From the NCBI GenBank assembly GCA_016935555.1, contig JAFGQR010000160.1, forward strand, positions 3,062 to 67,061: a DNA stretch of 64,000 bases, given 5' to 3'. Within the stretch, counting starts at the first letter, position 1; every line of letters starts with the position of its first letter. The notes under the pieces were generated by a model. The model saw nothing but the letters and a program-made list of their open reading frames with translations, ran no database searches and had not been told where the DNA came from. Below, piece by piece: positions 7,499 through 57,993 of this stretch. This DNA is from Verrucomicrobiota bacterium. Lineage in GTDB: Bacteria > Verrucomicrobiota > Verrucomicrobiia > Limisphaerales > JAFGQR01. The translations under genes were made by a program, and so were the position numbers.

Positions 7499-7679
7499 AA
7501 TCCTCGACTTCTGGGACGGCTTGCGGACAGGTCAAGTGCTGGAGCCGTTGCTGAGCCGAGGATTCTGGGAACGAAAGTGGAATCACATGACAAACGCACC
7601 ATTCAATAAGCACGGAATGAACGACGTCCAGGTCCCCGTCGAACGGATCGACTGGGGAGGCCGCGCCGCCTTGAACCGG

Positions 7680-7748
7680 GTAGGGACGCGTTCCACCGCG
7701 TCCCTGACTTGCCGGGGAAACGTGGGACGCGGAGGAACGCGTCCCTAC
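7680..7748. repeat. REP-like nested palindromic element (GTAGGGACGCGTTCC ... GGAACGCGTCCCTAC)
   Basis: Perfect 15-bp outer inverted repeat (7680-7694 / 7734-7748). It is contiguous with a 9-bp inner inverted repeat (CCGCGTCCC 7696-7704 / GGGACGCGG 7724-7732) across a single A/A mismatch, with a 19-nt loop. Each arm is also self-complementary around ACGCGT. Confidence 0.6.
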
Positions 7749-23244: not shown

Positions 23245-23543
23245 GCGGCGGCGCGCTGTCCGCCCGCCGGCCGCGGCACGGATTATTGCGAAACGCGCGC
23301 CTCGTGTCGAGCGGGCCGCGCGGATTCCAGGGGGCGTCTGCGGTCGTTCAAGACAGGCTGGCCAGCAAGCACAGTCCGACGGCCTGCCAGGGGTGCGGGG
23401 AGCGAGGCGGACAAGGGACTGGAAATTTGAGTTGGTTTTTGCCCGGAAATGTGGTACTCATGGTCGAGCACCAAATCATACCGCCGCGAGATCCACCCTC
23501 TGAGGGTTTCCTCAGGTCCGATGCCGTGGCGACATGCGCACCT

Positions 23544-26500
23544 ATGACCTTGACCAGATTGTTTTCATCGTTCCTGGCGGCGAGCCTGGGCCTGGCGGCG
23601 ATTCCGGGCGGGCTGCCGGCCGCGTCGATTCCGGGCCTTTACAACACGGGCGTCAGCACCAGTGGCGCGCTGCTGCCGGGGGGCAGCGTGGACCCGCATT
23701 ACCGGATGATTCAAAGCACCGACACGCAATTTCCGGGGCCCAACGCGATGGTGGTCAATGAAGGGTGGCCGATCGTGCCCGCCGCCAACGGCGTGTGGAT
23801 CGCGAACGGTCCCAGCTCGAAGTGGTTGGGGCCCCAGGCGGCCCAAGGCAACGGCAATCAGCCCGGCGACTATGTCTACCGTCTGACCTTCGACCTGACC
23901 GGGCTGGAACCCAGTTCGGCCGTCATCACGGGCCGGTGGACGTCCGACAACGCGGCCACCGACATCCGCATCAACGGCGTCGGCACCGGGATCAACTACG
24001 ACGGCAACTTTGGGGCGTGGTCGGCGTCTTGGACCATCAGCAGCGGTTTTCGGGAAGGCACCAACACGCTCGATTTCGTCATCAACAACGCCGGCACCGC
24101 GGTGAATCCCACCGCCTTCCGGGTCGAGCTGAGCGGCACCGCCGACTACGAGGCGCCTCCCGGCACGCCGCCGTCCATCCTCGAGCAGCCGGTTTCGGCG
24201 ACCGTGGGTCAGGGGGACGCGGTGACGTTCGAGGTGAGCATTTACGGCGCGAAACCGCTGTTCTACCAATGGCGCCTGAATGGCGAGCCCATCCTCGGCG
24301 CCAACAGCGCCTCGTTCAGCATCCCCAGCGCCGGCTCTTCGGATGCCGGCGCGTACGACGTGGTGGTGACCAACGCCGCCGGCATGGCGACCAGCGATGC
24401 GGCCACGCTGTCCATTGTGGTTCTCAGCCCGGCCCAGCTGAGTTACGAACCGGCGGGCCCCTCCAGCCGGCGGACCGGCCTGGCGTTCACCGAGATCATG
24501 TATCATCCCCCGAAACGAGCCGACGGCCGCACCCTGGAGTTCGTGGAACTCTACAATTCGAATCCATTCTACGAAGACCTGGGCGGGTATCGGCTGGCCG
24601 GGCAACTCGACTACACCTTCCCGGCCGGCACGCGCATCGAAGGTCTGTGCTACGTGGTCATTGCGCCCGTGCCTGAGGATGTGATGGCGGTTTATGGCCT
24701 GGCCAACGTGCTGGGCGGCGCCACCAACCGCCTCGCCAACAACGGCGGACGCCTGCAACTCCTGAAACCATCCGGCGGCGTGGTGCTCGATGTCACCTAC
24801 GACGACCAGCCGCCCTGGCCGGCGGCGGCCGACGGGACGGGCCACTCGCTCGTGTTGGTCCGGCCGTCGCATGGCGAACGCGATCCCCATGCCTGGGCCG
24901 CCAGCGCACAGCGTGGCGGCTCACCAGGCGCGCCCGACCCGGTCCCGGCCGGACCGCTGGAGAACGTGGTGATCAACGAGATCCTGGCCCATACCGACCT
25001 GCCCAATCTCGACTACCTCGAACTCTACAATCATAGTCCTGTCCCCGTCGATGTGTCCGGCGGCTGGCTGTCCGACGACCCCGCCACCAACAAATTCCAG
25101 ATCCCCGCCGACACCACGCTGCCCGCCAACGGCTTCCTGACGTTCGACGAAACCCAGCTCGGGTTCGCCCTCGCCGCCGACGGCGAAACGGTCTATCTCG
25201 TCAGCCCGGACCAGCAGCGCGTGATCGACTGCCTGCGCTACGGCGGCCAGGCCAACGGCGTCGCCTTCGGGCGATACCCCGACGGCGCCGAGCTGTTTCA
25301 GGAACTGACGTGCCCGAGCCCCGACGCGCCCAACGCGCCCATGCGGATTCGGAACGTGGTGATTCACGAGATCATGTACCACCCGATTTCAAACGATGCG
25401 GAAGACGAGTATGTGGAGCTGTATAACCGCGGCGAGACGGCGGTGGAGATGGGCGGCTGGCGTTTCAGCGACGGCATCGACTACGCCTTCCCCCCCGGAA
25501 CCGCGATCGACCCGGGCGGTTACCTGGTTGTCGCCAAGAACGCGGCGCGCCTTCTGACTAACCACCCGGGGTTGAACCCCGCCGTGGTCGTCGGCGACTT
25601 CGGCGGCACGCTCGCAGACGGCGGCGACCGCCTGGTGCTGGCCATGCCCGAGTTCGACCTGGAAACCAACGCCGTCAGCGGCCTCGTCCGCACCAACACC
25701 TTCTTTGTGGTCGCCGACGAAGTGGTCTACGCCGACGGCGGCCGTTGGGGCATGTGGGCCGACGGCGGCGGCAGCAGCCTCGAGCTGAAAGACCCGCGCA
25801 GCGACAACCGGCTGGCGGCCAATTGGGCGGACAGCGACGAGACCGCCAAGGCGCCGTGGACGCTGGTGGAACATACGGGTCTGCTGGACCACGGCACCGG
25901 CAGCGCCAGCACCAACCTCCAAATCCACCTCCAAGACGCCGGCGAAGCCCTGGTCGACGACGTCGAAGTCATCGCCGTCACGCCCGCGGGCGGCAACCGC
26001 ATCCCCAACTCCACCTTCGAGTCCGGCACCGCCGGCTGGGTCTTCAAAGGCACCCACCGCCGCACGTCCCTCGAAACCGCCGAGGGCCACAACAGCGCAC
26101 GGTCGCTGCACCTGCGGGCGACGGACCGGGGCGACACGGTGAATTTTGTGCGTGCCACCTTCAGTTCGCCGTTCAACGCGAACAACACGGCCACCATTCG
26201 CGCCTGGGTGCGCTGGTTGCGCGGGCAGCCGGAGATCCTGTTCCGGTTCAAGGAGAACTACCTGGAGGCGGTGGGGTTCATGACCGTTCCGGCCAACCTG
26301 GGCACGCCGGGCGCACCCAACAGCACCGCCGTCCCCAATGCGCCCCCCGCCATCACCGCCGTGAGCCATCGCCCCGCGCTGCCGGCGGCCAACCAGCCCA
26401 TCCGCGTCCAGGCGCGCGTGCATGATGCGGACGGGGTGGCGGCGGTCACGCTGCGCTATCGCATCGATCCGGCCAGCACCCTGGTCAGCGTCCCCATGGG

Positions 26501-29500
26501 CGACGACGGCACCAGCGGCGACTTGGTGGCCGGCGACGGCGTCTACGGAGCGGTGATCCCCGGCCAGTCCGCCTCCCGCCTGGTCGCGTTCCGCATCGAA
26601 GCCACCGACGCAGCCGCCACACCCGCCGCCAGCCAGTTCCCCGCCGACGCCCCCGCGCGCGAATGCCTGGTGCGCACCGGCGAGTCGGTGCCGGCCGGCG
26701 CCTTTGGCACCTACCGGATGTGGATGACGCAGGCAACGTTCGATTTCTGGACCAACCGCGAGAAGATGAGCAACGAGGCGCTGGACGTGACGTTTGTCTA
26801 CGGCAGCCATCGGATCATCTACAATGCCGGGTCCTACTTCGCCGGCAGCGCGTGGACCAGCCCCGGCTACACCACGCCCTCAGGCAACCTGTGCGGCTAC
26901 GACATCCTCTACCCCGATGACGACCTGCTCCTCGGGGACGATCATGTGACGCTGGACTGGCCCGTGCGCGACCCCACCAACCAGCGCGAACAAATGATGT
27001 TCTGGCTGCTCGAGCAATACGGGCTCCCCAACCTCTACCGCCGCTACATCCACATGTTCGTCAACGGCACCCGCCGCGGCACCATCTACGACGACGTCCA
27101 GCAACCCGGCACCGACGTCCTCGAGGAATGGTTCCCCGAAGACGACGAAGGCGACCTGTTCAAAACCAATTTCTACTTCGAATACGCCGACAACCAGGCC
27201 CGCGAGGGCGGCACTCCCAACACGCTCGAAATCTTCGCCACCACCGGCGGGCAGAAGAAGATCGCGCGCTACCGCTGGAACTGGAAACCGCGGGCGATGC
27301 GCGGTTCGGCCAACGATTTCCGGGTGTTGCTGGACTTGGTGGACGCGGTGAACAGCCAGGGGGCGGCCTACATCCCCGCTGTTGAAAGCCAGGTGGACAT
27401 GGAGCATTGGATGCGCACGTTCGCCATGAACGACCTGGCCTCGTATTGGGATGCGTTCGGCAATCCCAACTACAAGAACACCTATCTGTACAAGCCCGAA
27501 CGCAGCGGCTGGAAGCTGTTCTGCTGGGATTTCGACGTCGGCCTGGGCGCGGGCATCGGCATCGACAACGAACTCTACAATGCGCCGTTGTTCCCGGGGA
27601 ACATCGACCCCACCGTGCAGCGCCTCTACCAAACCCCCGTCTTCGTCCGCGCCTATTGGCGCGCCCTCGAGGAAGCCGTCAACACCTTCTTCACCGCCGA
27701 GGCCGTCACCCCGATTGTGACGGCGAAATACGACGCGTTTGTGGCGAACGGCGTGAACCTCACATCGCCCCTGGTGTCCAGCGGCCGCGGCTACAGCCTC
27801 CCCGGCTTCGTCGCGCAACGCCGTGCCTGGCTCCTCACCCAGCTGGCGACCGTCGCCGCCCCCTTCGCCGTGGCCGCCCCCGACCAGGTCACGCTGGACA
27901 CCAACCTGCTTGTTCTCAACGGCACCGCGCCGGTTGGCGTGGCTGCGTTGACCGTCAACGGCCAGCCCTACCCGGCCGCGTGGGCTTCGGTCAGCAACTG
28001 GACGCTGCGCATTCCGGTGCCGGCAGGATCGAACCTGCTGACGATCGCCGGCGTGGACCGGCTGGGCCACCCCGTTGACGGCGCCACCCGCGACCTGGCG
28101 GTGACGTTCTCCGGCACCAACCTTTCCCCGGTCGGGGTCGTTGTCATCAGTGAAATCATGTTCAATCCCCTCACCCCAGACACCTCCTTCGTTGAACTCC
28201 ACAACACCTCCGCCACCCATGCCTTCGACCTCTCAGGCTGGCGCGTCAATGGCCTCGGCTTCACCTTCCCGTCCGGCTCAACCCTTCTCCCAGGCCAATT
28301 CATCGTCCTCGCCCGCGATGCCATCGCCTTCGGCGCCGCCTTCGGCAACGACCAGCCCGTGTTCGCCGAATTCGAAGGCGCCCTCGACAACGACGGCGAA
28401 ACCCTCAGCCTTCGGATGCCGGGCGCGGCGCCGGGGGAGGAAATTGAAGTGGACCGTGTCACTTACGACGACCTGGCCCCCTGGCCCACCGCCGCGAATG
28501 GGCAGGGGCCGTCCCTCCAGGTCCTCGATCCGCTGCAGGACAACAGCCGGGTGAGCAACTGGACCGACGGCCAGGGCTGGCGTTTCTTCAGCACCAACCG
28601 CAACGTCGGCAGTGTCATCACAACACCCTTCCGGCTCTCGTTCTACTTCGAAAGCAGCGGCGGCGATGTTTATCTGGATGACATCCGCTTCGCCCAGGAA
28701 GACACCCCCGGCCAGGGCACCAATGTGCTCGACAACCCCGGCTTCGAATCCGGCCTGGCCTCGTGGGGCCTTGGCCCGCTGGCCACCAATTCCATGGTCA
28801 TCGGGACCGACGCCCATTCGGGCGGCTCTTGTTTGCAGTTGGTCGTCGCCCCCGGCGGCGCGTCCCTGACCACGTTCTACCAGGAGCTGGCCACGATCAC
28901 GAGGAGCACCAATTATACCCTCAGCTTCTGGTACAAACCCGGCACCGCCGGCACCAACCTCAGTGCGCGCGTCAGCTCGCTCTTCCGCACCTCACTCCTC
29001 ATCGAGGAAATCCTGGCCACGCCCGGCGAGCCAAACGCCGGCGCCCAATCCCTGCCGCCATACCCGCCTCTCTGGCTGAGCGAGATCCAGCCCGACAACC
29101 AATCCACCGTCGCCGACAACCGCGCCGAAATCGATCCCTGGATCGAAATCCACAACGCGGGCTCCGAACGGCTCAGCCTGGACGGATGTTACCTCTCCAC
29201 CGACCTCGGCCGCCTCACGGCCTGGGCCTTTCCCGAAAGCCCGCCCCTGGAGCCCGGCGAATACCGGCTCGTCTGGGCCGACGCGCAGCCCGAGCAATCC
29301 GACACGGCTCACTGGCACGCCAGCTTCCGGCTCAACCCGACCAACGGCTCCGTCTACCTGTCCCAGTCCGTCGCCGGCACTACGCGGATCCTGGATTATT
29401 ACCATTACTCCGACGTTCCCCCGGACCGTTCCTACGGCACTTATCCGCCCGGTCAAAACAGCTGGCGCGACACGTTCCATTACCCCACCCCGGGGAACAC

Positions 29501-30209
29501 CAACAACCCGGCCACGCCGCCCCTGGCCTTGTTCATCAACGAATGGATGGCGTCGAACAACGGCAGCGTCCTCGATCCCGCCGACCAGGATGCGGACGAC
29601 TGGTTCGAAATCCACAATCCCAACGATGAACCCGTGAACCTCGCCGGTTACCGCCTGACCGACAACCCCGCCGATCCCACTCAATACATCATCGGGGACG
29701 GCTTCGAGATCCCGGCCGGCGGCTTCCAGCTGGTCTGGGCCGACGAGGAAACCAGCCAGACGGAGCCGCCCGGACGGTTGCACGTGAACTTCCGGCTCAG
29801 CGCCAACGGTGAGTCCATCATGCTGTTCGCCGCCGATGGCCAGCTCGTCGATGCCGTCGCCTTCGGCACCCAATCCGCCAATGTCAGCGAAGGCCGGTTT
29901 CCCGACGGCAACCGCCCGCCGTTCCGCCTCCTCGATCCGTTCACGCCCGGAGCCCCGAACCGGATCCCGGCCGAGGCCGCGCCCGTGATCCGGTCGATCC
30001 TCGCGGATCTGCCTGAAGGCCGGGTCACGCTGGTCTGGGATGCGGAAGCCAACCGGACCTATCGGCTGCAATACAAAGAACGCCTGGACGATCCCGCGTG
30101 GCTCGACCTGGAAGGCGAAATCACCGCCGCCGGAAGCACCGCGAGCAAGGAGGACGCCACCCTCGGTGGCGCTGCCCAGCGGTTCTACCGGGTTCTGCGC
30201 GTGCCCTGA
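23544..30209 (+). CDS. Giant secreted protein (2,221 aa): N-terminal beta-sandwich, Ig I-set-like domain, six lamin-tail domains (LTD), CotH domain, conserved C-terminal FYRV module
   Basis: ORF 23286..30209. The true start is likely ATG 23544, giving the signal peptide MTLTRLFSSFLAASLGLAAIPGGLPAAS. The Ig domain reads PPSILEQPVSATVGQGDAVTFEVSIYGAKPLFYQWRLNG...AGAYDVVVTNAAG. LTD motifs include FTEIMYHP..LEFVELYN, VINEILAHT..YLELYN, VIHEIMYHP..YVELYN, VISEIMFNP..FVELHN, PWIEIHN and LFINEWMAS..WFEIHN. The CotH-like region reads LDWPVRDPTNQREQMMFWLLEQYGLPNLYRRYIHMFVNG. The protein ends ..YRLQYKERLDDPAWLDL...AQRFYRVLRVP. Confidence 0.9.
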   Translation: MTLTRLFSSFLAASLGLAAIPGGLPAASIPGLYNTGVSTSGALLPGGSVDPHYRMIQSTDTQFPGPNAMVVNEGWPIVPAANGVWIANGPSSKWLGPQAAQGNGNQPGDYVYRLTFDLTGLEPSSAVITGRWTSDNAATDIRINGVGTGINYDGNFGAWSASWTISSGFREGTNTLDFVINNAGTAVNPTAFRVELSGTADYEAPPGTPPSILEQPVSATVGQGDAVTFEVSIYGAKPLFYQWRLNGEPILGANSASFSIPSAGSSDAGAYDVVVTNAAGMATSDAATLSIVVLSPAQLSYEPAGPSSRRTGLAFTEIMYHPPKRADGRTLEFVELYNSNPFYEDLGGYRLAGQLDYTFPAGTRIEGLCYVVIAPVPEDVMAVYGLANVLGGATNRLANNGGRLQLLKPSGGVVLDVTYDDQPPWPAAADGTGHSLVLVRPSHGERDPHAWAASAQRGGSPGAPDPVPAGPLENVVINEILAHTDLPNLDYLELYNHSPVPVDVSGGWLSDDPATNKFQIPADTTLPANGFLTFDETQLGFALAADGETVYLVSPDQQRVIDCLRYGGQANGVAFGRYPDGAELFQELTCPSPDAPNAPMRIRNVVIHEIMYHPISNDAEDEYVELYNRGETAVEMGGWRFSDGIDYAFPPGTAIDPGGYLVVAKNAARLLTNHPGLNPAVVVGDFGGTLADGGDRLVLAMPEFDLETNAVSGLVRTNTFFVVADEVVYADGGRWGMWADGGGSSLELKDPRSDNRLAANWADSDETAKAPWTLVEHTGLLDHGTGSASTNLQIHLQDAGEALVDDVEVIAVTPAGGNRIPNSTFESGTAGWVFKGTHRRTSLETAEGHNSARSLHLRATDRGDTVNFVRATFSSPFNANNTATIRAWVRWLRGQPEILFRFKENYLEAVGFMTVPANLGTPGAPNSTAVPNAPPAITAVSHRPALPAANQPIRVQARVHDADGVAAVTLRYRIDPASTLVSVPMGDDGTSGDLVAGDGVYGAVIPGQSASRLVAFRIEATDAAATPAASQFPADAPARECLVRTGESVPAGAFGTYRMWMTQATFDFWTNREKMSNEALDVTFVYGSHRIIYNAGSYFAGSAWTSPGYTTPSGNLCGYDILYPDDDLLLGDDHVTLDWPVRDPTNQREQMMFWLLEQYGLPNLYRRYIHMFVNGTRRGTIYDDVQQPGTDVLEEWFPEDDEGDLFKTNFYFEYADNQAREGGTPNTLEIFATTGGQKKIARYRWNWKPRAMRGSANDFRVLLDLVDAVNSQGAAYIPAVESQVDMEHWMRTFAMNDLASYWDAFGNPNYKNTYLYKPERSGWKLFCWDFDVGLGAGIGIDNELYNAPLFPGNIDPTVQRLYQTPVFVRAYWRALEEAVNTFFTAEAVTPIVTAKYDAFVANGVNLTSPLVSSGRGYSLPGFVAQRRAWLLTQLATVAAPFAVAAPDQVTLDTNLLVLNGTAPVGVAALTVNGQPYPAAWASVSNWTLRIPVPAGSNLLTIAGVDRLGHPVDGATRDLAVTFSGTNLSPVGVVVISEIMFNPLTPDTSFVELHNTSATHAFDLSGWRVNGLGFTFPSGSTLLPGQFIVLARDAIAFGAAFGNDQPVFAEFEGALDNDGETLSLRMPGAAPGEEIEVDRVTYDDLAPWPTAANGQGPSLQVLDPLQDNSRVSNWTDGQGWRFFSTNRNVGSVITTPFRLSFYFESSGGDVYLDDIRFAQEDTPGQGTNVLDNPGFESGLASWGLGPLATNSMVIGTDAHSGGSCLQLVVAPGGASLTTFYQELATITRSTNYTLSFWYKPGTAGTNLSARVSSLFRTSLLIEEILATPGEPNAGAQSLPPYPPLWLSEIQPDNQSTVADNRAEIDPWIEIHNAGSERLSLDGCYLSTDLGRLTAWAFPESPPLEPGEYRLVWADAQPEQSDTAHWHASFRLNPTNGSVYLSQSVAGTTRILDYYHYSDVPPDRSYGTYPPGQNSWRDTFHYPTPGNTNNPATPPLALFINEWMASNNGSVLDPADQDADDWFEIHNPNDEPVNLAGYRLTDNPADPTQYIIGDGFEIPAGGFQLVWADEETSQTEPPGRLHVNFRLSANGESIMLFAADGQLVDAVAFGTQSANVSEGRFPDGNRPPFRLLDPFTPGAPNRIPAEAAPVIRSILADLPEGRVTLVWDAEANRTYRLQYKERLDDPAWLDLEGEITAAGSTASKEDATLGGAAQRFYRVLRVP

Positions 30210-31170: not shown

Positions 31171-31444
31171 TCAACACCCAAACCGCCCGACACGCAACCC
31201 CCGGCACCGTCCCCATGCGGTCATTCCCGCGCGTGGTGGGCGGAAAGGAAAGGCGGTTTCGGGGCGCAAAGGCGCAAGGAGGCGTCCCGCGGCTGCGCCA
31301 AGAAATGTGTAGCGTTCGGCAATACTGCCGTAGTCGACGGCCGCCGCCCGCTCAACACTGGCACACGTCGCCTGCCGCGCCGTTCGCGGGCTTCCCCATG
31401 AATGGCGCGCGGATGGGCTCAGTCCAAGCAGTGCACGCGCAATC

Positions 31445-31663
31445 ATGAAGCGTCGAACGAGTGCCGAAATTCATCGCCGCCAGTTCCTGGCTGGTGCGAC
31501 CCGCGTTTTGGCCATCGGCGCCCTGGCCGCCACCGCCGCGCTCGCCGCCCGCCGCCGACGCGGCCGGCGTCCCGCGTCATGCCAGGACTGCCCCGTGCTG
31601 GCCGGATGCGTCTTCGCCAACGCGCCGGCCGACTCACATTGCCAACGGCCAGGCGCACCATGA
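31445..31663 (+). CDS. 72-aa Tat-motif, Cys-rich mini-protein (hypothetical)
   Basis: MKRRTSAEIHRRQFLAGATRVLAIGALAATAALAA + RRRRGRRPASCQDCPVLAGCVFANAPADSHCQRPGAP. It has a twin-arginine motif (RRQFLAG), a hydrophobic h-region and four Cys in the tail. Its stop TGA (31661-31663) overlaps the ATG (31660) of the next gene as ATGA. A short ORF in GC-rich DNA gets only moderate confidence. Confidence 0.5.
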   Translation: MKRRTSAEIHRRQFLAGATRVLAIGALAATAALAARRRRGRRPASCQDCPVLAGCVFANAPADSHCQRPGAP

Positions 31664-32715
31664 AGCCGTCCCCTGCCCTTCGCGTGCGGCGACGCTGTTT
31701 CCTGCGGGCTGGGATCCTGACCGCCGGCGCGGCCATGACCGTGTTTTCGCGCCGCCCAGGCTTCGGCGCCCAGCCCCCTCAAACCAATCCCTTCGCCTAC
31801 GACGTCAGCCGCCACAGCCGCGTCGACCCCGCCCTGGTCCACTTTTCCCTTGTCCAACAGTTCCGCGGTCCTGCGGGAGCCCGCCGGCTGGCGGTTGGGC
31901 CGGACCAATGTCTTTATATTGCCGCAGGGACGTCGGTGCATCTCTACGACGCGCAGGGCCGGCCGCTGGGGCTCAAGTCCCTGAACGCCGAGGCGCACGC
32001 CGTCGCGATGGCGGGTGACGGCTCGCTCTATGTGGGTTTGCGCGACCGGGTTGCCGTGTTTGCACCCAACGCCAGCCGGGCGGTTGTCTGGGCGTCGCCC
32101 GGGGAGCGCACTTGGATCAGCGGGGTGGCTGCGGGAAAGAACGACGTGTTTGCGGCCGATTCCGGCAATCGCGTTGTGCTGCGCTACGATCGCTCGGGCA
32201 AGCTTGTGGGGCGCATCGGAGGGCGCGACACGGAACGCAACGTGCCGGGGCTGGTTCTGCCCAGTCCGTTTCTGGATGTCGAGCTTCACCCGGACGGGTT
32301 GCTGCGGGTCAACAATCCCGGGCGGCACCGGGTCGAAGCCTACACGGTGGAGGGCGATCTGGAAGTTGTCTGGGGCAAACCCACGGCCGCCATCGAGGGG
32401 TTTTGCGGCTGCTGCAACCCCGTGAGCCTCGCCATCCTTCCCGGCGGAGACATTGTCACCTCCGAGAAAGGCCTTCCGCGGGTCAAAGTGTATTCGGTCC
32501 ATGGCAAGTTCCAATCCGTCGTTGCCGGGCCCGGCTCGTTTCCCGAGAATGCGCGGATCGGGGCGGGAGGCATCGCTCCGAACGGCATGCGGGCGTCGCT
32601 GGATGCGGCGGCGGACGCGCGGGGTCGGGTCTACGTGCTCGACACCGCAACCGCCCTGATCCATGTCTTCGCCCGAAAACCCGAAGCCGCCTTTGGCCGC
32701 CGGCACGCTGGCTGA
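31660..32715 (+). CDS. Tat-leader NHL-repeat six-bladed beta-propeller protein
   Basis: Internal ATG of ORF 31402..32715 gives MKPSPALRVRRRCFLRAGILTAGAAMTVFS. NHL-like blades are readable (LAVGPDQCLYIAAG, VAMAGDGSLYVG, DVFAADSGNRVVLRYD, LHPDGLLRVNNPGRHRVEAY, LPGGDIVTSEKGLPRVKVYS, GRVYVLD). It also carries an unusual EGFCGCCNP motif. Confidence 0.8.
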   Translation: MKPSPALRVRRRCFLRAGILTAGAAMTVFSRRPGFGAQPPQTNPFAYDVSRHSRVDPALVHFSLVQQFRGPAGARRLAVGPDQCLYIAAGTSVHLYDAQGRPLGLKSLNAEAHAVAMAGDGSLYVGLRDRVAVFAPNASRAVVWASPGERTWISGVAAGKNDVFAADSGNRVVLRYDRSGKLVGRIGGRDTERNVPGLVLPSPFLDVELHPDGLLRVNNPGRHRVEAYTVEGDLEVVWGKPTAAIEGFCGCCNPVSLAILPGGDIVTSEKGLPRVKVYSVHGKFQSVVAGPGSFPENARIGAGGIAPNGMRASLDAAADARGRVYVLDTATALIHVFARKPEAAFGRRHAG

Positions 32716-32722
32716 ACCCACG

Positions 32723-33304
32723 ATGAACCCCACCCCTTCCGATTCCACGCCGCCCGTCAGCCGCCGGCAATTTCTCAGAGACGGCCTGCGGGCGGCCGGC
32801 GTGGCGGGGCTGGGGGGTGTGGCGGGGCTGGGGGCGGCGCGGACGGGCGCCAGGGAGTATTACTGGCAGATCGATCCGGACAAGTGCGTCCGGTGCGGCC
32901 GCTGCGCCACCGAGTGCGTGCTCCAGCAATCCGCGGTCAAATGCGTGCACGCCTACGCGATCTGCGGCTATTGCGAGTTGTGCACCGGCTATTTCAACCC
33001 CGAACCCAACGCCCTGAACACCGGCGCCGAAAACCAGCTCTGCCCCACCTCCGCGATCCGCCGCACGTTTATCGAAGACCCCTACTACGAATACACCATC
33101 GACGAGCAACTCTGCATCGGCTGCGGCAAGTGCGTCGAAGGCTGCAGCCGTTTCGGCAACGGCTCCCTTTACCTCCAAGTCCGCCACGACCGCTGCCTCA
33201 ACTGCAATGAGTGCGCCATCGCCCGCGTCTGCGCCGGCGACGCCTTCCGCCGTGTGCCCGTCGATCAACCGTATCTGCTGCGGACCGCCCCGCCCGCCCA
33301 CTGA
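32723..33304 (+). CDS. Tat-exported poly-[4Fe-4S] ferredoxin (NapG/MauM/NosG-like)
   Basis: Internal ATG 32723 of ORF 32663..33304 gives MNPTPSDSTPPVSRRQFLRDGLRAAGVAGLGG (Tat). There are four Cys clusters: CVRCGRCATEC, CGYCELCTG...LCP, CIGCGKCVEGC and CLNCNECAIARVC. Confidence 0.85.
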   Translation: MNPTPSDSTPPVSRRQFLRDGLRAAGVAGLGGVAGLGAARTGAREYYWQIDPDKCVRCGRCATECVLQQSAVKCVHAYAICGYCELCTGYFNPEPNALNTGAENQLCPTSAIRRTFIEDPYYEYTIDEQLCIGCGKCVEGCSRFGNGSLYLQVRHDRCLNCNECAIARVCAGDAFRRVPVDQPYLLRTAPPAH

Positions 33305-33307
33305 CGC

Positions 33308-34768
33308 ATGCCCCCCGCCGCCCACGCCACAGCCCGCGCCCGCCCGGACCGGACCCGCGTCCGCCGCGCCCGCGTTCCCGCGGTGCTGGCCGGGGTCTGC
33401 CTGGTCCTTATGGCGCTAAACGCCACGGCCCAGCACCGATTCCCCCCGCCGGATTTCGAGGGCGGCCACACGCTGCCGGCCACCACCACGCCCGCGCCGC
33501 GGGCGCTCGTTCTCGAGTATGTGGATTTTGGGCTGCTGCTGGCCGGGCTGGGTGTGGCGGCGTGGCTGACCTTGCGACGCCGCTCGCGCCGGGGCGTGGT
33601 GATCCTGAGCCTGGCGTCGCTGGCCTATTTCGGATTTTACCGCGAAGGCTGCCTGTGCGTCATCGGCTCCATCCAAAACGTCGCCCTGGCGCTCGCCGAC
33701 CCCGGCTACGTCCTGCCCGCGTTCGCCCTGGGCTTCTTCGTCGCCCCCCTCGCCGTCGCCCTTTTCTTCGGACGCGCCTTTTGTGCCGGTGTCTGTCCGC
33801 ACGGCGCCCTTCAGGATTTGGTGCTTGTCAAACCTGTCAAGGTTCCCTCCTGGCTCGAACACGCGTTGGGAATCCTGCCGTTTGTTTACCTGGGCGTGGG
33901 CGTTCTGGCCGCCGCGACGGGGAGCGGCTTCATCATCTGCCGCTACGATCCCTTCGTGCCCCTGTTCCGGCTGTCGGGCAGCTTCAGCCTGCTGGTCTTC
34001 GGCGGCGCGATGCTGCTGCTCAGCCTGTTCGTCGGGCGCCCCTACTGCCGGTTCCTCTGCCCCTATGGCGCCCTGCTCAAAATGGCCGCGTCCATCAGCC
34101 GGTGGCGCGTCCGCACCACGCCCGACTACTGCACGCAATGCCGCCTCTGCGAGGAGTCCTGCCCCTTCGGCGCCATGCGCGAACCGTCCAGCGGCGCGGC
34201 GGATCCGACGACGCTGGTTGCGGAACGCAAACGGCTCACCGGCCTGCTGGTGCTGACGCCGGTGTTGATCGTCGCCCTGGGCTGGATCGGATCGCGTGCC
34301 GGGGGCCCCGCCTCCCTGCTCCATCCCACCGTGGCGCTGGCCGAAAGCCATCTCCGCCAGGAGCGCGCCCCGATGAACTACCCGCCCCAGTCCCCCGAAG
34401 CCCTGATGTTGGTCCGCGCCCGGCTCGACCCGGCCGCCCTTCTTGCCCAGGCCGCAGCGGTGCGCCGCCGTTTCATCGTGGGCGGCTGGCTCCTCGGCGG
34501 ATGGATCGGTCTGGTCCTCGGCGCCAAGTGGATCAGCCTGTCGGTGCGCCGACACCGCACCGACTTCGAGCCGGACCGCGGCGCCTGCCTCTCCTGCGCC
34601 CGTTGCTTCGAGTTCTGTCCCAACGAACGCGTGCGACGCGGACTGCTGCCCCCGGAAGCGCTTGTTCTCAAGGCCGCCCACGCCGGATTGCCCGGGGCCG
34701 GCGCGGGCGCCCGCCCCGCCGCCGCGCAAGCGGCTTCGCGGCCCGTCCAGCCTTGCCCGCATGCCTGA
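33308..34768 (+). CDS. Polytopic membrane Fe-S protein (NapH/MauN/NosH-like)
   Basis: 486 aa with about 8 hydrophobic helices. It has two CxxxCP motifs (FCAGVCPHGA, YCRFLCPYGA) and two ferredoxin motifs (CTQCRLCEESCP, CLSCARCFEFCP). Confidence 0.8.
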   Translation: MPPAAHATARARPDRTRVRRARVPAVLAGVCLVLMALNATAQHRFPPPDFEGGHTLPATTTPAPRALVLEYVDFGLLLAGLGVAAWLTLRRRSRRGVVILSLASLAYFGFYREGCLCVIGSIQNVALALADPGYVLPAFALGFFVAPLAVALFFGRAFCAGVCPHGALQDLVLVKPVKVPSWLEHALGILPFVYLGVGVLAAATGSGFIICRYDPFVPLFRLSGSFSLLVFGGAMLLLSLFVGRPYCRFLCPYGALLKMAASISRWRVRTTPDYCTQCRLCEESCPFGAMREPSSGAADPTTLVAERKRLTGLLVLTPVLIVALGWIGSRAGGPASLLHPTVALAESHLRQERAPMNYPPQSPEALMLVRARLDPAALLAQAAAVRRRFIVGGWLLGGWIGLVLGAKWISLSVRRHRTDFEPDRGACLSCARCFEFCPNERVRRGLLPPEALVLKAAHAGLPGAGAGARPAAAQAASRPVQPCPHA

Positions 34769-36572
34769 GCCTTCGCCAACGCTTTCGCCGCCTGCCGCGT
34801 CCGCCACGGCGGCTTGCGCCGTTCGGCTCGAGCGCGCCGCGTTGCTGACCGCGGTGGTGGCGGGGTTGTTCTGCGCGGTGCTGGTGGTGGGCATGATCGT
34901 GGTGCATGTGCGCTCGACGCTGGACGACCCGCTCAACGCGCCGCACATGGCGGCGCTTAAGAGCCAGCTCGCCGCCTCCCCCAAGGACGAAGCCCTCAAA
35001 CGCCAAATCCGCGAACTCGATCTCGATTTGCGCCGCAGTTACTTCCGGCAGCTGTCGATGAACCATGTCGGCGGCTGGATGTTGCTGGCGGGGTTCGGCG
35101 TGCTCCTGCTCGCCGCCAACAAGGTGCGCCAATTGCGCCAGCTCCCGCCCGCACCGCATCTCAACCCCAACGCCGCCGAGCAGGCCGCGCGCCGCGCCGC
35201 CCAGGCCCGCGGGTCGCTGGCCGGGCTCGCCGTCGCCCTCGCTCTCGCCAGCGCCGCTCTCGCCCTGGTTCTCAGACCCGCTGTCCCCGCCCGGCCCGGG
35301 GACCTCCAACGCCTGCTCGCCCGCAATGCCAGCCCCGCCCCCGCACCCCCGTCGCCTCCCCCGGCCGCCGAATCCAAAAACCACTGGCCCCGCTTTCGCG
35401 GTCCGGACGGCAACGGCATTGCCCTCCACACCAATGTGCTCCTCCAATGGGATGTCGCCGCCGGCACCGGCCTGCTCTGGAAAACACCCGTCCCCGCCCC
35501 CGGATTCAATTCTCCGATCGTCTGGAACGACCGCATTTTCATGTCCGGCGGCGACAAGCAGAAGCGCGAGGTCATGTGCTTCGACCTCGAGTCCGGCAAG
35601 CTCCTCTGGCAGCGCGCCGTCGACAAGGTCCCCGGCTCGCCCGCCGAACTGCCGGAGGTCCCCGAAATGACCGGGTTCGCCGCGCCGACCATGGCCACGG
35701 ACGGTCAGCGCGCCTACGTGATTTTTGCGAACGGGGATGTGGCTGCGTTTGGATTTGACGGCGCGCTGGCGTGGGCGACGAACCTTGGGGTGCCGCACAA
35801 TCCGCATGGTCATGCCAGTTCGCTGGCCATGTGGCAGGACCGGCTTCTTGTGCAGCTTGACCACGGCAACCCTGACGAGCATCTCTCCAAACTCCTCGCC
35901 TTCGACGGCGCCACCGGCAGCGTCCTGTGGCAGCGCGCGCGGCCTGTCGGCGACTCCTGGGCCAGCCCGATTGTGATCGACACCGCCGGCACATCCCAGG
36001 TCATCGCCCTCGGATTGCCCTGGCTCATCGCCCACGATCCCGCCGACGGCTCCGAGTTGTGGCGGGCGGACTGTCTGGAAGGCGAAGTGACCCCGTCCCC
36101 CGTGTTTGCCGACGATCGCCTCTTCGTGGTCAGTCCCAACATCTACCTGATGGCCATCCGCCCCGACGGCCGCGGCGACGTCACCAAGACCCATATCCTC
36201 TGGAAAGCCGAGGACGGCATTCCGGACATCGGCAGCCCGGTGAGCAACGGCGAGCTGGTGTTTGTCGTCAACACCCCCGGCATGCTCACCTGCTACGACG
36301 CCCGGGACGGCAAGAAACTCTGGGAACACGACTACGAGACCGAGGTCAACGCGTCGCCCACCCTCGTCGGCCGGCGTCTTTACCTCTTCACCGTCGACGG
36401 CGCCGCCCTCGTCGTCGAGGCGGCGCGGGCGTTCAAGGAGATCGCCCGCTCTGCGATGGGCGAGAAAGTGTTTGCGAGTCCGGCCTTTGTGCGAAACCGC
36501 ATCATCGTGCGCGGCGCCCGGCATCTGTTCTGCCTCGGAACCGCCGGCGACCAGATCGCCCAGGCGCCATGA
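34761..36572 (+). CDS. Membrane-anchored PQQ-like (BamB-like) beta-propeller repeat protein
   Basis: Internal ATG 34761 of ORF 34443..36572 overlaps the upstream stop by 8 nt. There are three N-terminal hydrophobic helices (LLTAVVAGLFCAVLVVGMIVV, GGWMLLAGFGVLLLAA, LAGLAVALALASAALALVL). PQQ_2-type propeller repeats follow (WPRFRGPDGNG, SPIVWNDRIFMSGG, CFDLESGKLLWQ, AFDGATGSVLWQ, AHDPADGSELWR, CYDARDGKKLWE). Confidence 0.8.
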   Translation: MPEPSPTLSPPAASATAACAVRLERAALLTAVVAGLFCAVLVVGMIVVHVRSTLDDPLNAPHMAALKSQLAASPKDEALKRQIRELDLDLRRSYFRQLSMNHVGGWMLLAGFGVLLLAANKVRQLRQLPPAPHLNPNAAEQAARRAAQARGSLAGLAVALALASAALALVLRPAVPARPGDLQRLLARNASPAPAPPSPPPAAESKNHWPRFRGPDGNGIALHTNVLLQWDVAAGTGLLWKTPVPAPGFNSPIVWNDRIFMSGGDKQKREVMCFDLESGKLLWQRAVDKVPGSPAELPEVPEMTGFAAPTMATDGQRAYVIFANGDVAAFGFDGALAWATNLGVPHNPHGHASSLAMWQDRLLVQLDHGNPDEHLSKLLAFDGATGSVLWQRARPVGDSWASPIVIDTAGTSQVIALGLPWLIAHDPADGSELWRADCLEGEVTPSPVFADDRLFVVSPNIYLMAIRPDGRGDVTKTHILWKAEDGIPDIGSPVSNGELVFVVNTPGMLTCYDARDGKKLWEHDYETEVNASPTLVGRRLYLFTVDGAALVVEAARAFKEIARSAMGEKVFASPAFVRNRIIVRGARHLFCLGTAGDQIAQAP

Positions 36573-38983
36573 CGGCCATGCCCCCCCCACCCCTCGCCCC
36601 CCCAGCTTCTCCGCAAGCCGCCGCGCCGGACGCGATCGACCTGGCGTTCGTCGACGAGGCCATCGCCCGCCTGGGCAACACGCCCGACGCCGTCATCCCT
36701 CTGCTCCAGGCCATCCAGGACCACTACGGCTGGCTGCCCGAAACCGCCCTGCGCCGCATCGCCGCCACCACCCGCATCCTGCCCTCCTCCATCACCGGCG
36801 TCGCCACCTTCTACGACATGTTCCGACACCAGCCCGTCGGCAAGCATGTCGTCCATGTCTGCCACGGCACCGCCTGCCACGTCGGCGGCGCCGACCGCAT
36901 CGAAGACGCCCTCCGCCGCCACCTGCGCATTGCCCCGGGCGCCCACACCGATCCCGACCGCCTGTTCACACTCGAATCCGTCGCGTGCCTCGGCTGCTGC
37001 ACGCTCGCGCCGGTGGTCAAGATCGAGGATCACATCGCCCAGGCCACCACCGAAAAGGTGCCGGACATTCTGCGCGATTTCCTGGCCAGCCGCACCCGCC
37101 CCGTCTCCCCGCAAAGCCCGGCCCCCGCCGCGCCTCCCCCGGACGGCGCCGCCCAAATCCAGGTTTGCCTTGACTCCTGCTGCGTCGCCAAGGGCACCGA
37201 CCGCATCTTCCACATCCTCCAGGAGACCATCGCGCGCACGGGCGCGCCCGTCACGGTGAAGCGCGTCGGGTGCGTCGGCGCCTGTTACCGGACGCCGATG
37301 ATTGAGATTGCCGGCCCCAGCCAGTCTCCGCGCGCCTACACGGATCTCAGCCCCGCCCGGGCGCGCACCCTGGTCGAAGCCCAGTTCCGGCCCCGCGGCT
37401 GGCAGCGGCGCGTATCGCGCTGGTGGGCGCGGGCGATCGACGGTGTGTTGCTGGACGATCCCGCCGCTCCCATCGCCGCCCGCCCCCGTGCCTTGCCCGA
37501 ACGCGATGCCGGGACCCGGGCGTTTTTCGGGCGCCAGGTCCATATTGCGATGGAACATTACGGGCGGCTCGACCCGCTCGATCTCGACGAATACCTCGCC
37601 CACGACGGCTTTGCCGGGCTGCGCCGCTGCCTCAACGAACTGCCCCCGTCCCACATCGTCGACCTCGTCGACCAATCCGGACTGCGCGGACGCGGCGGCG
37701 CCGGATTTCCCACCGGCCAGAAATGGCGCATGGTTCATCGTCAGGCGGGCGACACCAAGTACGTGATCTGCAACGGCGACGAAGGCGACCCGGGCGCGTT
37801 CATGGACCGCATGATCCTGGAGTCCTTCCCCTACCGCGTCATCGAGGGACTCGCCATCGCCGCAGTCGCCACCGGCGCCCACGACGCCATCTTCTACATC
37901 CGCCATGAATACCCCCAGGCCCTCAAACGCGTCCGAGCCGCCCTTGCCGAATGCGAGCGGCGCGGCTGGCTGGGGGCGCGTCTGATGGGCGCCGCCTACC
38001 CGCTGCGCGTCGTCATCAAGGAGGGCGCCGGCGCGTTCGTGTGCGGCGAGGAAACCGCCCTGATTGCTTCCATCGAGGGCCGGCGCGGGATGCCGCGGCT
38101 GCGCCCGCCGTTTCCTGCGCAGTCGGGTTTGCGGGGCAAGCCCACGCTGATCAACAACGTCGAGACCCTGGCGCTGGTTCCATGGGTCCTGCGTCATGGG
38201 CCCCAAGCCTTCGCCGCCATCGGCACCCGCACGAGCAAAGGCACCAAGGTGTTTGCCCTCGCCGGCCGCGTCCGTCGCGCCGGCCTCATCGAAGTCCCCA
38301 TGGGCACCACCATTCGCGACATTGTCGAGGACATCGGCGGCGGCGTGCCCGACGGACGCAAGTTCAAGGCGGTGCAGATCGGCGGGCCTTCGGGCGGCTG
38401 TCTGCCGGCGCGCCTGGCCGACACGCCTGTTGATTACGAGTCGCTGCGCGACGTGGGGGCGATCATGGGTTCGGGCGGCTTGGTGGTGCTCGACGACACC
38501 GCCTGCATGGTGGACATCGCCCGTTACTTCCTCCAGTTCACGCAAAACCAGTCCTGCGGCAAATGCACCTTCTGCCGCATCGGCACCAAGCGCATGCTCG
38601 AACTGCTGGAATTGCTCTGCGCCGGACGCGCCCAGCGCCGCGACCTGGCCGAACTCGAACACCTCGCCGTCCAAGTCAGCCAAAGCAGCCTGTGCGGCCT
38701 CGGCAAAACCGCCCCCAACCCCGTCCTGACCACCCTGCGCTACTACCGCGACGAATACGAAGCCCACCTGCAGGGACACTGCCCCGCCGGCAAATGCCCC
38801 GCCCTGATCCATTACGTCGTCACCCCCCGCTGCACCGGCTGCACCCTCTGCGCCCAGCATTGCCCTGTCGACGCCATCCCCCTTGCCCCCTACCGCCAGC
38901 ACGCGATCAACGACACCCTGTGCATCCGCTGCGATGCCTGCCGCGTCGTCTGCCCCCACGACGCCATCGACGTGAAATCCTGA
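36569..38983 (+). CDS. Fused NuoE-like [2Fe-2S] / NuoF-like FMN- and NAD(P)H-binding subunit with an extra thioredoxin-like ferredoxin and a C-terminal 2x[4Fe-4S] domain (HydB/HndC/StnBC-like)
   Basis: Internal ATG 36569 of ORF 35927..38983 overlaps the upstream stop as ATGA. NuoE motifs: LLQAIQDHYGWLP, VCHGTACHV, CLGCCTLAP. NuoF motifs: GLRGRGGAGFPTGQKW, ICNGDEGDPGAFMDR, SCGKCTFCRIG, SLCGLG. C-terminal motifs: CTGCTLCAQHCP and CIRCDACRVVCP. Confidence 0.9.
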   Translation: MTAMPPPPLAPPASPQAAAPDAIDLAFVDEAIARLGNTPDAVIPLLQAIQDHYGWLPETALRRIAATTRILPSSITGVATFYDMFRHQPVGKHVVHVCHGTACHVGGADRIEDALRRHLRIAPGAHTDPDRLFTLESVACLGCCTLAPVVKIEDHIAQATTEKVPDILRDFLASRTRPVSPQSPAPAAPPPDGAAQIQVCLDSCCVAKGTDRIFHILQETIARTGAPVTVKRVGCVGACYRTPMIEIAGPSQSPRAYTDLSPARARTLVEAQFRPRGWQRRVSRWWARAIDGVLLDDPAAPIAARPRALPERDAGTRAFFGRQVHIAMEHYGRLDPLDLDEYLAHDGFAGLRRCLNELPPSHIVDLVDQSGLRGRGGAGFPTGQKWRMVHRQAGDTKYVICNGDEGDPGAFMDRMILESFPYRVIEGLAIAAVATGAHDAIFYIRHEYPQALKRVRAALAECERRGWLGARLMGAAYPLRVVIKEGAGAFVCGEETALIASIEGRRGMPRLRPPFPAQSGLRGKPTLINNVETLALVPWVLRHGPQAFAAIGTRTSKGTKVFALAGRVRRAGLIEVPMGTTIRDIVEDIGGGVPDGRKFKAVQIGGPSGGCLPARLADTPVDYESLRDVGAIMGSGGLVVLDDTACMVDIARYFLQFTQNQSCGKCTFCRIGTKRMLELLELLCAGRAQRRDLAELEHLAVQVSQSSLCGLGKTAPNPVLTTLRYYRDEYEAHLQGHCPAGKCPALIHYVVTPRCTGCTLCAQHCPVDAIPLAPYRQHAINDTLCIRCDACRVVCPHDAIDVKS

Positions 38984-56983: not shown

Positions 56984-57045
56984 AGTGATACTGGCGGATT
57001 CAGACGTTGCAGACCAACACAGGGTTACGGACGGTGGAAATCGGG

Positions 57046-57993
57046 CTAGGGCTTGGGGCCGGGACCGGGGGAGGATGCGGGCACGGGCAGGCTGGCGAGC
57101 GAGGAGCGAATGCGTTTCTCGAGATCCACCATGGCGGGCACGGCGCGGCGTGTGGCGGGCAGGGTTTCCATCGCCTGCAGGGCGGCTTGAAAAGCCTCGG
57201 CGGCCTCCCGGGTCCGCCCCGCCTGGCGCAGGATGTCTCCCCGACGGGCGAGCCAGGTTTCCTTGCGGGGGTAATGTGCCATCAGCTTGTCGATCCGGGC
57301 CAGCGCGGCGTCGACATGGTTCTGCTGGATCTCGATCTCGATGGCGGCCAGCTGCAAGGTTACCAGGGGCCCGAGTTCGGCGAGGCCCTCCTCGAGACCC
57401 CGCAGCGCTTCGGCAAGGTGGGGGCCGCCTTCGGCGGCCAGGGCCTGCGCGCGTTCGAGGTAGAGTTCCGGCGTGGGCGGGGCGCTGACGCGAATGGCTT
57501 CGCTGTAATCGCGGGCTGCGGCGACGCCTTCGCCGAGCCTGACCTGGGCGCGGGCGCGCGTCATGAGCGCTTCGGCGTGGCCGGGTTGAATCGCCAGGAA
57601 GCGGTCGGCAGCCACCTTGGCGCTTTGGAACCATTGGGCGTCCAGGAACAGCCGGGCGCGCGCGAAGTGGAGGAAATGCCAGCGGTTGCTCAGCGTTTGG
57701 GCCCGTTCCAGGTCGGCTTGGGCCGCATCCCAATCGCAGTGGGACCGGTGCAGTTCCGCGCGCAGCCAGTAAAGCTGCGGATTGCGAGGGGACTGCGCAA
57801 TTTGTGTGGTGGCGTCGCGGATCAGGTCGTCCAGCTCGCCGTGCGCCGCGGCGCGCGGGGCTGGCGCGACGCAGGCTCCGGCAGCCAGCAACGCCGCGCA
57901 CCACACGGCGCCGACACGCCGAGCCAGACGCGCGGTGTCGCGAGATCCTGTCGGGGCTTCCGATCGATTGAGTGAGTGAGGGAGGATTTTCAA
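57046..57993 (-). CDS. TPR-repeat protein with N-terminal signal-like segment
   Basis: Lies in the frame of ORF 57046..58638, which upstream overlaps the HupE gene. TTG at 57993 overlaps the HupE stop (TTTTGA) and gives ...[29 protein letters not shown]. Helical TPR-like repeats follow ([29 protein letters not shown]; [29 protein letters not shown]). The start codon is uncertain. Confidence 0.65.

Follow-up and report, generated by a model that had tools for sequence, protein, structure and literature searches.

Which kind of protein, if any, is encoded by an open reading frame (ORF) that comprises only 72 amino acids and whose stop codon overlaps the start codon of an NHL beta-propeller gene? 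This question is raised by positions 31445..31663 (+) of a 64,000-nucleotide stretch, hereafter referred to as the window, of contig JAFGQR010000160.1 from a Verrucomicrobiota bacterium, a metagenome-assembled genome (MAG) in which the ORF is unannotated. As outlined below, the ORF is a real, conserved and previously unannotated protein-coding gene, which constitutes the first gene of a conserved operon. Its product, in the following termed the mini-protein, is interpreted as a small, Tat-targeted [4Fe-4S] protein that would serve the NHL propeller as a subunit or anchor in a periplasmic redox complex (Tat, twin-arginine translocation), a reading to which a probability of roughly 0.55 is assigned. 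The ORF had been singled out by an original prediction made from the DNA letters alone, and the position, the RRxFL motif, the four cysteines, the basic tail and the ATGA shared with the propeller gene are exactly as described there.

A conserved gene in front of the NHL propeller

Direct reading of the sequence places the ATG of the mini-protein gene at 31445, the earliest start codon past the preceding in-frame stop, and its TGA at 31661-31663, while the four nucleotides ATGA at 31660..31663 (+) form a stop/start overlap with the NHL gene, an arrangement indicative of translational coupling. The translation product (MKRRTSAEIHRRQFLAGATRVLAIGALAATAALAARRRRGRRPASCQDCPVLAGCVFANAPADSHCQRPGAP, 72 amino acids) consists of 35 residues followed by a tail of 37 residues and features, in this order, RRQFL, a hydrophobic stretch of 15 residues, the basic sequence RRRRGRR and a C-x2-C-x5-C-x10-C arrangement, in which the cysteines occupy residues 46, 49, 55 and 66.

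Considered alone, the ORF is no better than chance at the GC content of ~68-70% that prevails around it. Within the surrounding 16 kb, 98 ORFs of at least 50 amino acids are present, the GC content by codon position (GC3) fails to separate the reading frames, and an ORF of 437 amino acids in the NHL frame, starting at 31402, likewise spans the region. This in-frame start was rejected for the propeller gene, as the NHL homologues as well as the NCBI call start at MK...RRxFL; the corresponding N-terminal extension is Arg/Pro-rich, looks off-frame and is not present in NHL homologues. Scans of the mini-protein region yielded neither an Rfam family match nor a promoter or terminator consensus. Moreover, a search with the window mini-protein as a single sequence returned no relatives, and the exact 72-residue sequence was not found in a collection of 15 billion proteins, which means that the gene was never called in the MAG. 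Hence, it is conservation in other genomes that lifts the ORF above chance.

By means of the invariant peptides GFCGCCNP and T[CS]EKGLPRV, 80 loci of NHL orthologues, all from Verrucomicrobiota-type MAGs, were gathered and the DNA 5' of the propeller gene was read in all frames. A homologous mini-ORF comprising RRxFL, a hydrophobic run of ~15 residues, some basic residues and a cysteine cluster with C-x2-C-x5-C precedes the propeller gene in ~72 of the 77 loci with sufficient upstream sequence. A profile derived from these syntenic orthologues retrieved at least 1,061 proteins at E<=1e-3, all of which are termed 'hypothetical' and none of which carries a Pfam domain, while an exhaustive HMMER scan yielded at least 1,897 representatives of 50%-identity clusters at E<=1e-3, including 628 at E<=1e-10. 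In the reverse direction, each of seven genomic places of mini-protein matches directly precedes a gene of ~340 amino acids in the NHL position, and NapG-/NapH-like genes come next wherever the contig continues. Thus, the position in front of an NHL propeller and the conservation of RRxFL together with CxxCxxxxxC, both of which the original prediction had proposed to check, are borne out across the family, and the lack of conservation 5' of orthologous propellers, which it had named as a counter-indication, was not encountered.

The gene is under purifying selection: the ratio of nonsynonymous to synonymous substitution rates (dN/dS) amounts to 0.21-0.42 in the 15 closest pairs of orthologues (dS 0.14-0.56). 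For comparisons between the window copy and other members dS is saturated (~1 or more), which renders the ratio uninformative there. No Pfam or NCBIfam model covers the family according to scans of the window copy and of canonical members. In L081, the long locus most closely related to that of the window, a canonical mini-protein gene (L081:3577-3975) is likewise uncalled; hence, annotation of the family is inconsistent across assemblies. Eight contigs that carry the operon (L005, L006, L026, L027, L040, L055, L059 and L061) reside within MAGs labelled Bifidobacteriaceae, Acidoferrum, Terriglobia or Proteobacteria, which likely reflects binning or labelling errors rather than horizontal transfer. 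A further contig with the operon, L045, belongs to a Methylacidiphilum MAG.

The connection between the mini-protein and the propeller extends beyond adjacency. The 4-nt ATGA overlap is found in 47 of 72 loci, and in 18 more the two genes meet within +/-4 nt. In many members, including L005, L020, L021, L057 and others as well as L081 (3960-3975), the last codons of the mini-protein gene encode Gly-Gly (GGA GGT TGA) and thereby place a Shine-Dalgarno sequence (GGAGG) just ahead of the NHL start, a feature that is not present in the window copy (…GGCGCACCATGA).

The partner gene (31660..32715, +) encodes a six-bladed NHL beta-propeller of 351 amino acids, which matches the Pfam NHL family and carries an RRxFL signal of its own (RRRCFL). 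The protein is identical to MBN2508096.1 (P0001, JXQ71_15525) and starts at the same position as the NCBI call. An AlphaFold2 (AF2) model depicts a confident six-bladed propeller with a predicted local distance difference test score (pLDDT) >95 in the blades. The lowest-confidence part of the fold (pLDDT 72-74) is the invariant GFCGCCNP loop with its three cysteines (nt 32398-32421, residues 247-254), which may bind a metal, a cofactor or a partner protein. When the propeller was compared with known structures by Foldseek and with PDB sequences, all matches were generic NHL domains (TRIM2/3, Thin, Brat, PknD) that offered no clue to an enzymatic activity.

In two loci, L067 (380-1474) and L073 (3734-4819), the mini-protein and the propeller are fused in frame, and the same holds for the representative protein P0258. 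In these fusions, the propeller is devoid of its own RRxFL signal and of the first ~20 mature residues (the NPFAYD...TDPKLI segment). Since the fused propeller lacks a signal of its own, the N-terminus of the mini-protein must act as the export signal, and the fusions would place the cysteine motif on the propeller side of the membrane, i.e. in the periplasm. The NPFAYD...TDPKLI segment, which is lost upon fusion, may serve to dock the separate mini-protein. Taken together, the partnership of the mini-protein with the NHL propeller is well supported, and the fusion and coupling data name its physical partner. Hence, of the two roles that the original prediction had offered, the small subunit is backed by adjacency, ATGA overlap and fusions, while the other, a cross-linked cofactor peptide, is not, in view of the lack of any profile match and of a maturase.

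Putative export signal and cysteine motif

The twin-arginine motif R11-R12-Q-F-L of the window copy (31475..31489, +) is preceded by histidine (H-R-R-Q-F-L), while the family consensus reads S/N-R-R-E-F-L-R; in the alignments, RR and F vary little or not at all, and RRxF is present in all 120 top matches. It is followed by the hydrophobic segment V21-A35 (VLAIGALAATAALAA; 31505..31549, +), which could represent either the hydrophobic (h-) region of a signal or a short membrane anchor. The uncharged stretch comprises 15 residues in the window copy, equal to the family median of 15 (range 11-18; mean Kyte-Doolittle value 1.87). In the window copy it ends in ALA-A, while many other members lack a clear AxA. 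The adjoining basic stretch RRRRGRR (residues 36-42; 31550..31570, +), a position where Arg/Lys occur in other members too, is readable as a c-region of the 'Sec-avoidance' type (Sec, general secretory pathway), which is typical of Tat signals. Judged from these sequence features, the N-terminus of the mini-protein would direct the protein to the Tat pathway. In addition, residues 11-38 form a helix in the AF2 model (pLDDT ~80), and the region after RR displays a mean pairwise identity of 0.39 versus 0.24 for the NHL protein's own signal; this higher conservation suggests that the segment persists in the mature protein, as an anchor or as a helix for interactions.

A weak match of residues 1-38 to TIGR02811, 'formate dehydrogenase region TAT target' (E=0.0034; 17.7 bits versus a cut-off of 48.45), reflects a similar build, i.e. 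up to ~70 amino acids with an N-terminal Tat signal and a gene beside that of a periplasmic oxidoreductase, but the alignment is restricted to the signal region, and the C-terminal parts are dissimilar. The best PDB sequence match of the mini-protein profile is the Tat region of the Rieske protein AioB (E=1.1, not significant). Like the mini-protein, the Rieske proteins AioB and PetA combine an N-terminal RRxFL with a small metal-cluster subunit that accompanies a larger catalytic partner; the mini-protein differs from them in that it features neither a Rieske fold nor CxH...CxxH, and its part after the signal amounts to only ~35-45 residues. Identity with TIGR02811 or AioB was rejected, the matches being confined to the Tat signal.

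The C-terminal part carries the cysteines. The family consensus roughly reads M..(8-10 aa)..S/N-RREFLRGGxRYALLAGLAAVSAxLxxRxGGxLxGQxCxNQGxCxGCxxFxxCGLPQALSAK, in which RR, F, two more arginines (RR+5, 96% of loci; RR+9, 100%), the three cysteines of C-x2-C-x5-C and the (G)LPxALS tail show little or no variation. Nearly all members possess a further cysteine (Cys1) six residues N-terminal to this core, so that the full motif C-x5-C-x2-C-x5-C is found in 120 of 120 top matches and in 146 of 148 representatives. Exactly four cysteines around the core were counted in 307 of 322 members, and the four members without a cysteine at the canonical Cys1 position (-6) still total four: the missing residue is relocated to x6 in P0342, to x9 in L046, to x11 in L002 and, uniquely, to ten residues downstream in the window copy. 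A subclade (P0131, P0134, P0137, P0164, L006, L042, L053 and others) carries a charged, Ser/Arg-rich C-terminal extension of 25-45 residues after LPQALSAK, e.g. ...SRRSRREEAQT...LLTSAAT.

In the window copy, the invariant core C46-x2-C49-x5-C55 (CQDCPVLAGC; 31580..31609, +) is preserved, while a deletion of seven residues takes out Cys1 and VFANAPAD stands where others have GLPQALSA. Cys66 (31640..31642, +) replaces the deleted Cys1 as the fourth cysteine. Since the nearest relatives, L081, L082 and L001, show the canonical motif, the window pattern CxxCxxxxxC...C is a derived variant of the family pattern. Thus, of the spacing given in the original prediction, the core recurs throughout the family and the downstream fourth cysteine is confined to the window. 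The restoration of the total to four argues for a site with four ligands. This site does not resemble the classical 4Fe-4S ferredoxin (Fer4) motif, which reads CxxCxxCxxxCP: Pfam scans gave no match of the mini-protein to the Fer4 clan, and the spacing is unlike CxxCxxCxxxC(P).

A closer parallel is provided by RseC of Escherichia coli, which carries C20-x5-C26-x2-C29-x5-C35, the last three cysteines being conserved, and whose isolated N-terminal domain reconstitutes an oxygen-sensitive [4Fe-4S] cluster (PMC11729352). RsxB and RsxD, two components of the Rnf-type complex, are interaction partners of RseC, whose Cys-rich region is modelled by AlphaFold with low confidence (PMC11729352). Reading of the RseC sequence of E. 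coli K-12 showed that the spacing matches the canonical motif of the mini-protein. RseC (PF04246) and the mini-protein accordingly share C-x5-C-x2-C-x5-C(-G), a variable first cysteine and low AlphaFold confidence in the Cys region; of the RseC motif, the window copy retains only the C-x2-C-x5-C core plus a downstream cysteine. Both are small membrane-associated proteins with a partner of the polyferredoxin type (Rsx/Rnf in the one case, NapG/NapH-like proteins in the other). They differ in topology, since the Cys motif of RseC is N-terminal, cytoplasmic and followed by two transmembrane helices, whereas the mini-protein has a single hydrophobic segment in front of a Cys motif whose periplasmic position is judged from the fusions, and its partner is the NHL propeller instead of Rnf.

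Compact four-cysteine [4Fe-4S] sites are also found in the Endonuclease III/MutY loop (C-x6-C-x2-C-x5-C) and in WhiB (C-xn-C-x2-C-x5-C). These proteins share the C-x2-C-x5-C core and the variable first cysteine with the mini-protein, P0342 corresponding exactly to x6-x2-x5, but they are unrelated cytoplasmic DNA-binding proteins, and the likeness is restricted to the motif level.

A proposed [4Fe-4S] subunit and its alternatives

The proposed function can be depicted as a sequence of steps. The ATGA overlap would couple translation of the mini-protein to that of the NHL propeller, giving rise to near-equimolar amounts of both products. The four cysteines would hold one metal centre, most likely [4Fe-4S], that is loaded in the cytoplasm, and the S/N-R-R-x-F-L-R motif, in conjunction with ~15 hydrophobic residues and the basic c-region, would direct the protein to the Tat pathway. 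This pathway carries folded, cofactor-loaded proteins and is the usual route for Fe-S proteins that are loaded in the cytoplasm. At the periplasmic side, the mini-protein would dock on the propeller as its small subunit, may stay tethered to the membrane through an uncleaved signal, and could relay electrons between the propeller and the NapG/NapH-like module, which would be linked to the NuoEF-like proteins of the same operon. NapH-like modules are described as modular electron conduits to periplasmic oxidoreductases (PMC8238504). With respect to Tat export, the identity of the cofactor, cleavage of the signal, the direction of electron flow and the substrate, this scheme relies on inference.

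Several observations weigh against the [4Fe-4S] subunit. RH or RL replaces RR in L018, L004 and L017 (SRHEFW, DRLEFL), implying either tolerated Tat variants or export that does not strictly depend on RR. Moreover, L027, L035, L038 and L061 are devoid of the mini-protein gene (L026 is masked), showing that the NHL propeller can exist without it; the place 5' of the propeller gene is taken by a radical S-adenosylmethionine (SAM)-like gene, judged by eye, in L027 (1700-2460) and by an unrelated gene in L035 and L038. Folding together with the NHL protein, which the original prediction had suggested as a check, yielded no readable contact: AF2 models of a construct of the window mini-protein plus NHL and of the fusion P0258 left the Cys segment undocked at pLDDT <50 and revealed neither an interface nor a ligand geometry. 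With regard to RseC, hhalign brought the two motifs into register over 19 columns at a probability of just 3%, and the Pfam family RseC_MucC was matched neither by the window copy at E<=0.01 nor by canonical members at E<=1. Homology of the mini-protein with RseC was therefore rejected, and the resemblance is a motif-level analogy. The window copy is in addition the most divergent member seen, lacking Cys1 and LPxALS, and might work differently or be decaying. Finally, four cysteines would equally fit two disulfides or a Zn/Cu site.

This last point leads to the alternative that survives best, although it is considered rather improbable, namely a partner or membrane tether of the propeller without any Fe-S cluster. 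Here, the cysteines would form two disulfides or bind Zn/Cu, and the protein would fulfil a structural role in anchoring, assembly or as an export escort. The even number of cysteines (four in 307 of 322) suits disulfides as well as a cluster, the periplasm is the compartment where disulfides form, no cluster-like packing is apparent in AF2, and the conservation of the N-terminal helix (0.39 versus 0.24, with Arg at RR+9 in 100%) suggests a functional anchor. On the other hand, a small disulfide peptide would need no more than Sec for export, whereas RR is nearly invariant. A first cysteine that moves while the total stays at four is what ligand exchange at a metal centre typically looks like, and it sits uneasily with a fixed disulfide topology. 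Furthermore, the identical spacing in RseC binds [4Fe-4S] (PMC11729352), and all neighbouring genes encode Fe-S proteins.

The divergence of the window copy gives rise to a second alternative, which concerns this copy rather than the family and is judged unlikely: a degenerating or functionally altered member that is not equivalent to the canonical protein. The deletion of Cys1 along with seven residues, the change of (G)LPxALS to VFANAPAD, the only downstream fourth cysteine among 322 members despite canonical motifs in its nearest relatives L081, L082 and L001, and the failure of the single-sequence search would fit such a state. It is opposed by the intact frame, the preserved ATGA, the return of the cysteine total to four and the intact downstream operon, and by the retention of the invariant residues R11, R20, C46, C49 and C55 as well as of the near-invariant R12 and F14.

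Even less probable, with only a very small share of the overall expectation, is a precursor of a cross-linked cofactor, akin to a ribosomally synthesized and post-translationally modified peptide (RiPP), that would require dedicated maturation enzymes, as do MauA with its tryptophan tryptophylquinone (TTQ) and QhpC with its cysteine tryptophylquinone (CTQ) and thioethers. The analogy with MauA/QhpC, put forward in the original prediction, holds insofar as a small, exported, Cys-rich protein is encoded together with a beta-propeller next to NapG/NapH homologues, which are represented by MauM/MauN in the mau cluster. It fails with respect to the defining features: the mini-protein shares no sequence match with MauA/QhpC in Pfam or NCBIfam, has no maturase gene and displays a cysteine spacing of the Fe-S type, and its propeller adopts the six-bladed NHL fold, while the partner of MauA is the heavy subunit of methylamine dehydrogenase (MADH). 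Tryptophan is absent from the window mini-protein and occurs near the Cys core in only 7 of 322 members, in agreement with the earlier exclusion of TTQ and CTQ. In the neighbourhood of the conserved operon, radical SAM, MauG-type, protease or exporter genes were not found. The radical-SAM-like gene 5' of NHL in L027, assigned by eye with no family search made, might speak for maturation, but L027 itself is without a mini-protein gene. Moreover, a natural fusion to the propeller would not be expected of a leader-core precursor.

The notion that the region yields no functional protein and acts solely as the 5' leader of the propeller gene, or as an upstream ORF needed for coupling alone, could invoke the missing annotation here and in L081, the frequency of ORFs of such size by chance at this GC content and the GGAGG formed by the final codons (…GG*) of many members, but is rejected as next to impossible given the divergence of synonymous sites in a family whose amino-acid motifs are kept in at least 1,897 clusters (dN/dS 0.2-0.4), the in-frame fusions and the lack of an Rfam match and of a promoter or terminator consensus in the region, and the original prediction's own caveat that a leader might be the better explanation is thereby contradicted.

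The operon and its significance

The order mini-protein, NHL, NapG-like, NapH-like and PQQ_2 propeller is kept in essentially every locus. Since the gene 5' of the mini-protein gene is not conserved, the latter opens the operon. The NHL gene is followed by a gene for a NapG-like periplasmic polyferredoxin (32663..33304, +) with the Tat motif SRRQFL, which adjoins NHL in 80 of 82 loci. The start at 32663 overlaps NHL by 53 nt, while an ATG at 32723 sits just past the NHL stop and is probably the true start, as it gives an N-region of normal length in front of SRRQFL. Hence, three consecutive products of the window carry Tat-type motifs, i.e. HRRQFL in the mini-protein, RRRCFL in NHL and SRRQFL in the NapG-like protein. 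The next gene (33308..34768, +) encodes a NapH/MauN-like membrane Fe-S protein (Fer4_5), whose match to TIGR02163 (E=4e-12) lies below the curated cut-off, and is found in 74 of 82 loci. The family matches of these two genes substantiate the earlier assignment of NapG-like and NapH(MauN)-like genes directly after the propeller.

Further downstream, a membrane-anchored beta-propeller of the PQQ_2/BamB-like type is encoded (34761..36572, +), which is present in 67 of 82 loci and also in L081, L083, L084, L086 and L088. The shortfalls of the NapG-like, NapH-like and PQQ_2 genes among the 82 loci are due to contig ends. The subsequent gene (36580..38983, +; start approximate) specifies a flavoprotein that resembles a fusion of NuoE and NuoF and carries a 2x[4Fe-4S] domain at its C-terminus; the gene also follows in L081, L083 and L084 and is succeeded by that of a GltD-like protein comprising Fer2_4, Fer4_20 and Pyr_redox_2, the operon extending to 41046 in the window. 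This composition suggests that the downstream genes of the operon link cytoplasmic NAD(P)H with the periplasmic propellers.

A second PQQ_2 gene (~467 amino acids) is located just 5' of the mini-protein gene in L083, L084, L086 and L087. In the window, the region directly upstream (23286-30209, +) is occupied by an ORF of 2,307 amino acids with six lamin-tail domains, a CotH kinase, CBM_4_9 and Ig domains. Two further giant ORFs are found at 7521-15002 (+; 2,493 amino acids, without a Pfam match) and at 45167-58327 (-; 4,386 amino acids).

Taken together, a small Tat-dependent metal-binding subunit is of a familiar kind, whereas neither the family nor its partner nor the operon has been characterised. 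The family of ~1,900 clusters is unnamed, is covered by neither a Pfam nor an NCBIfam model, and no publication on it was found; in particular, searches for NHL propellers in combination with NapG/NapH, or for small Tat-exported Cys-rich subunits with propellers, retrieved no description of the system. The mini-protein marks the start of an uncharacterised, strictly conserved operon, which combines two beta-propellers with proteins of the NapG/NapH and NuoEF types, in Verrucomicrobiota, one of the major phyla in soil and freshwater.

At a more tentative level, and with doubt prevailing, the mini-protein and the NHL propeller with its GFCGCCNP loop might constitute an unrecognised type of periplasmic metalloenzyme, in which a mini-protein of ~40 residues with a single [4Fe-4S] cluster wires the propeller to a NapG/NapH-like conduit that is fed from the cytoplasm by NuoEF-like subunits of an NAD(P)H dehydrogenase. 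In that case, the assembly would represent a new oxidoreductase module for respiration or detoxification, widely distributed in Verrucomicrobiota. The RseC precedent provides a concrete and cheap biochemical hypothesis, namely [4Fe-4S] binding by C-x2-C-x5-C plus one movable cysteine. Should this cofactor hold true, a little-understood Fe-S motif would extend from accessory proteins of Rnf/Rsx to the periplasmic side, and the mini-protein would offer an entry to what NHL-propeller enzymes do in bacterial respiration.

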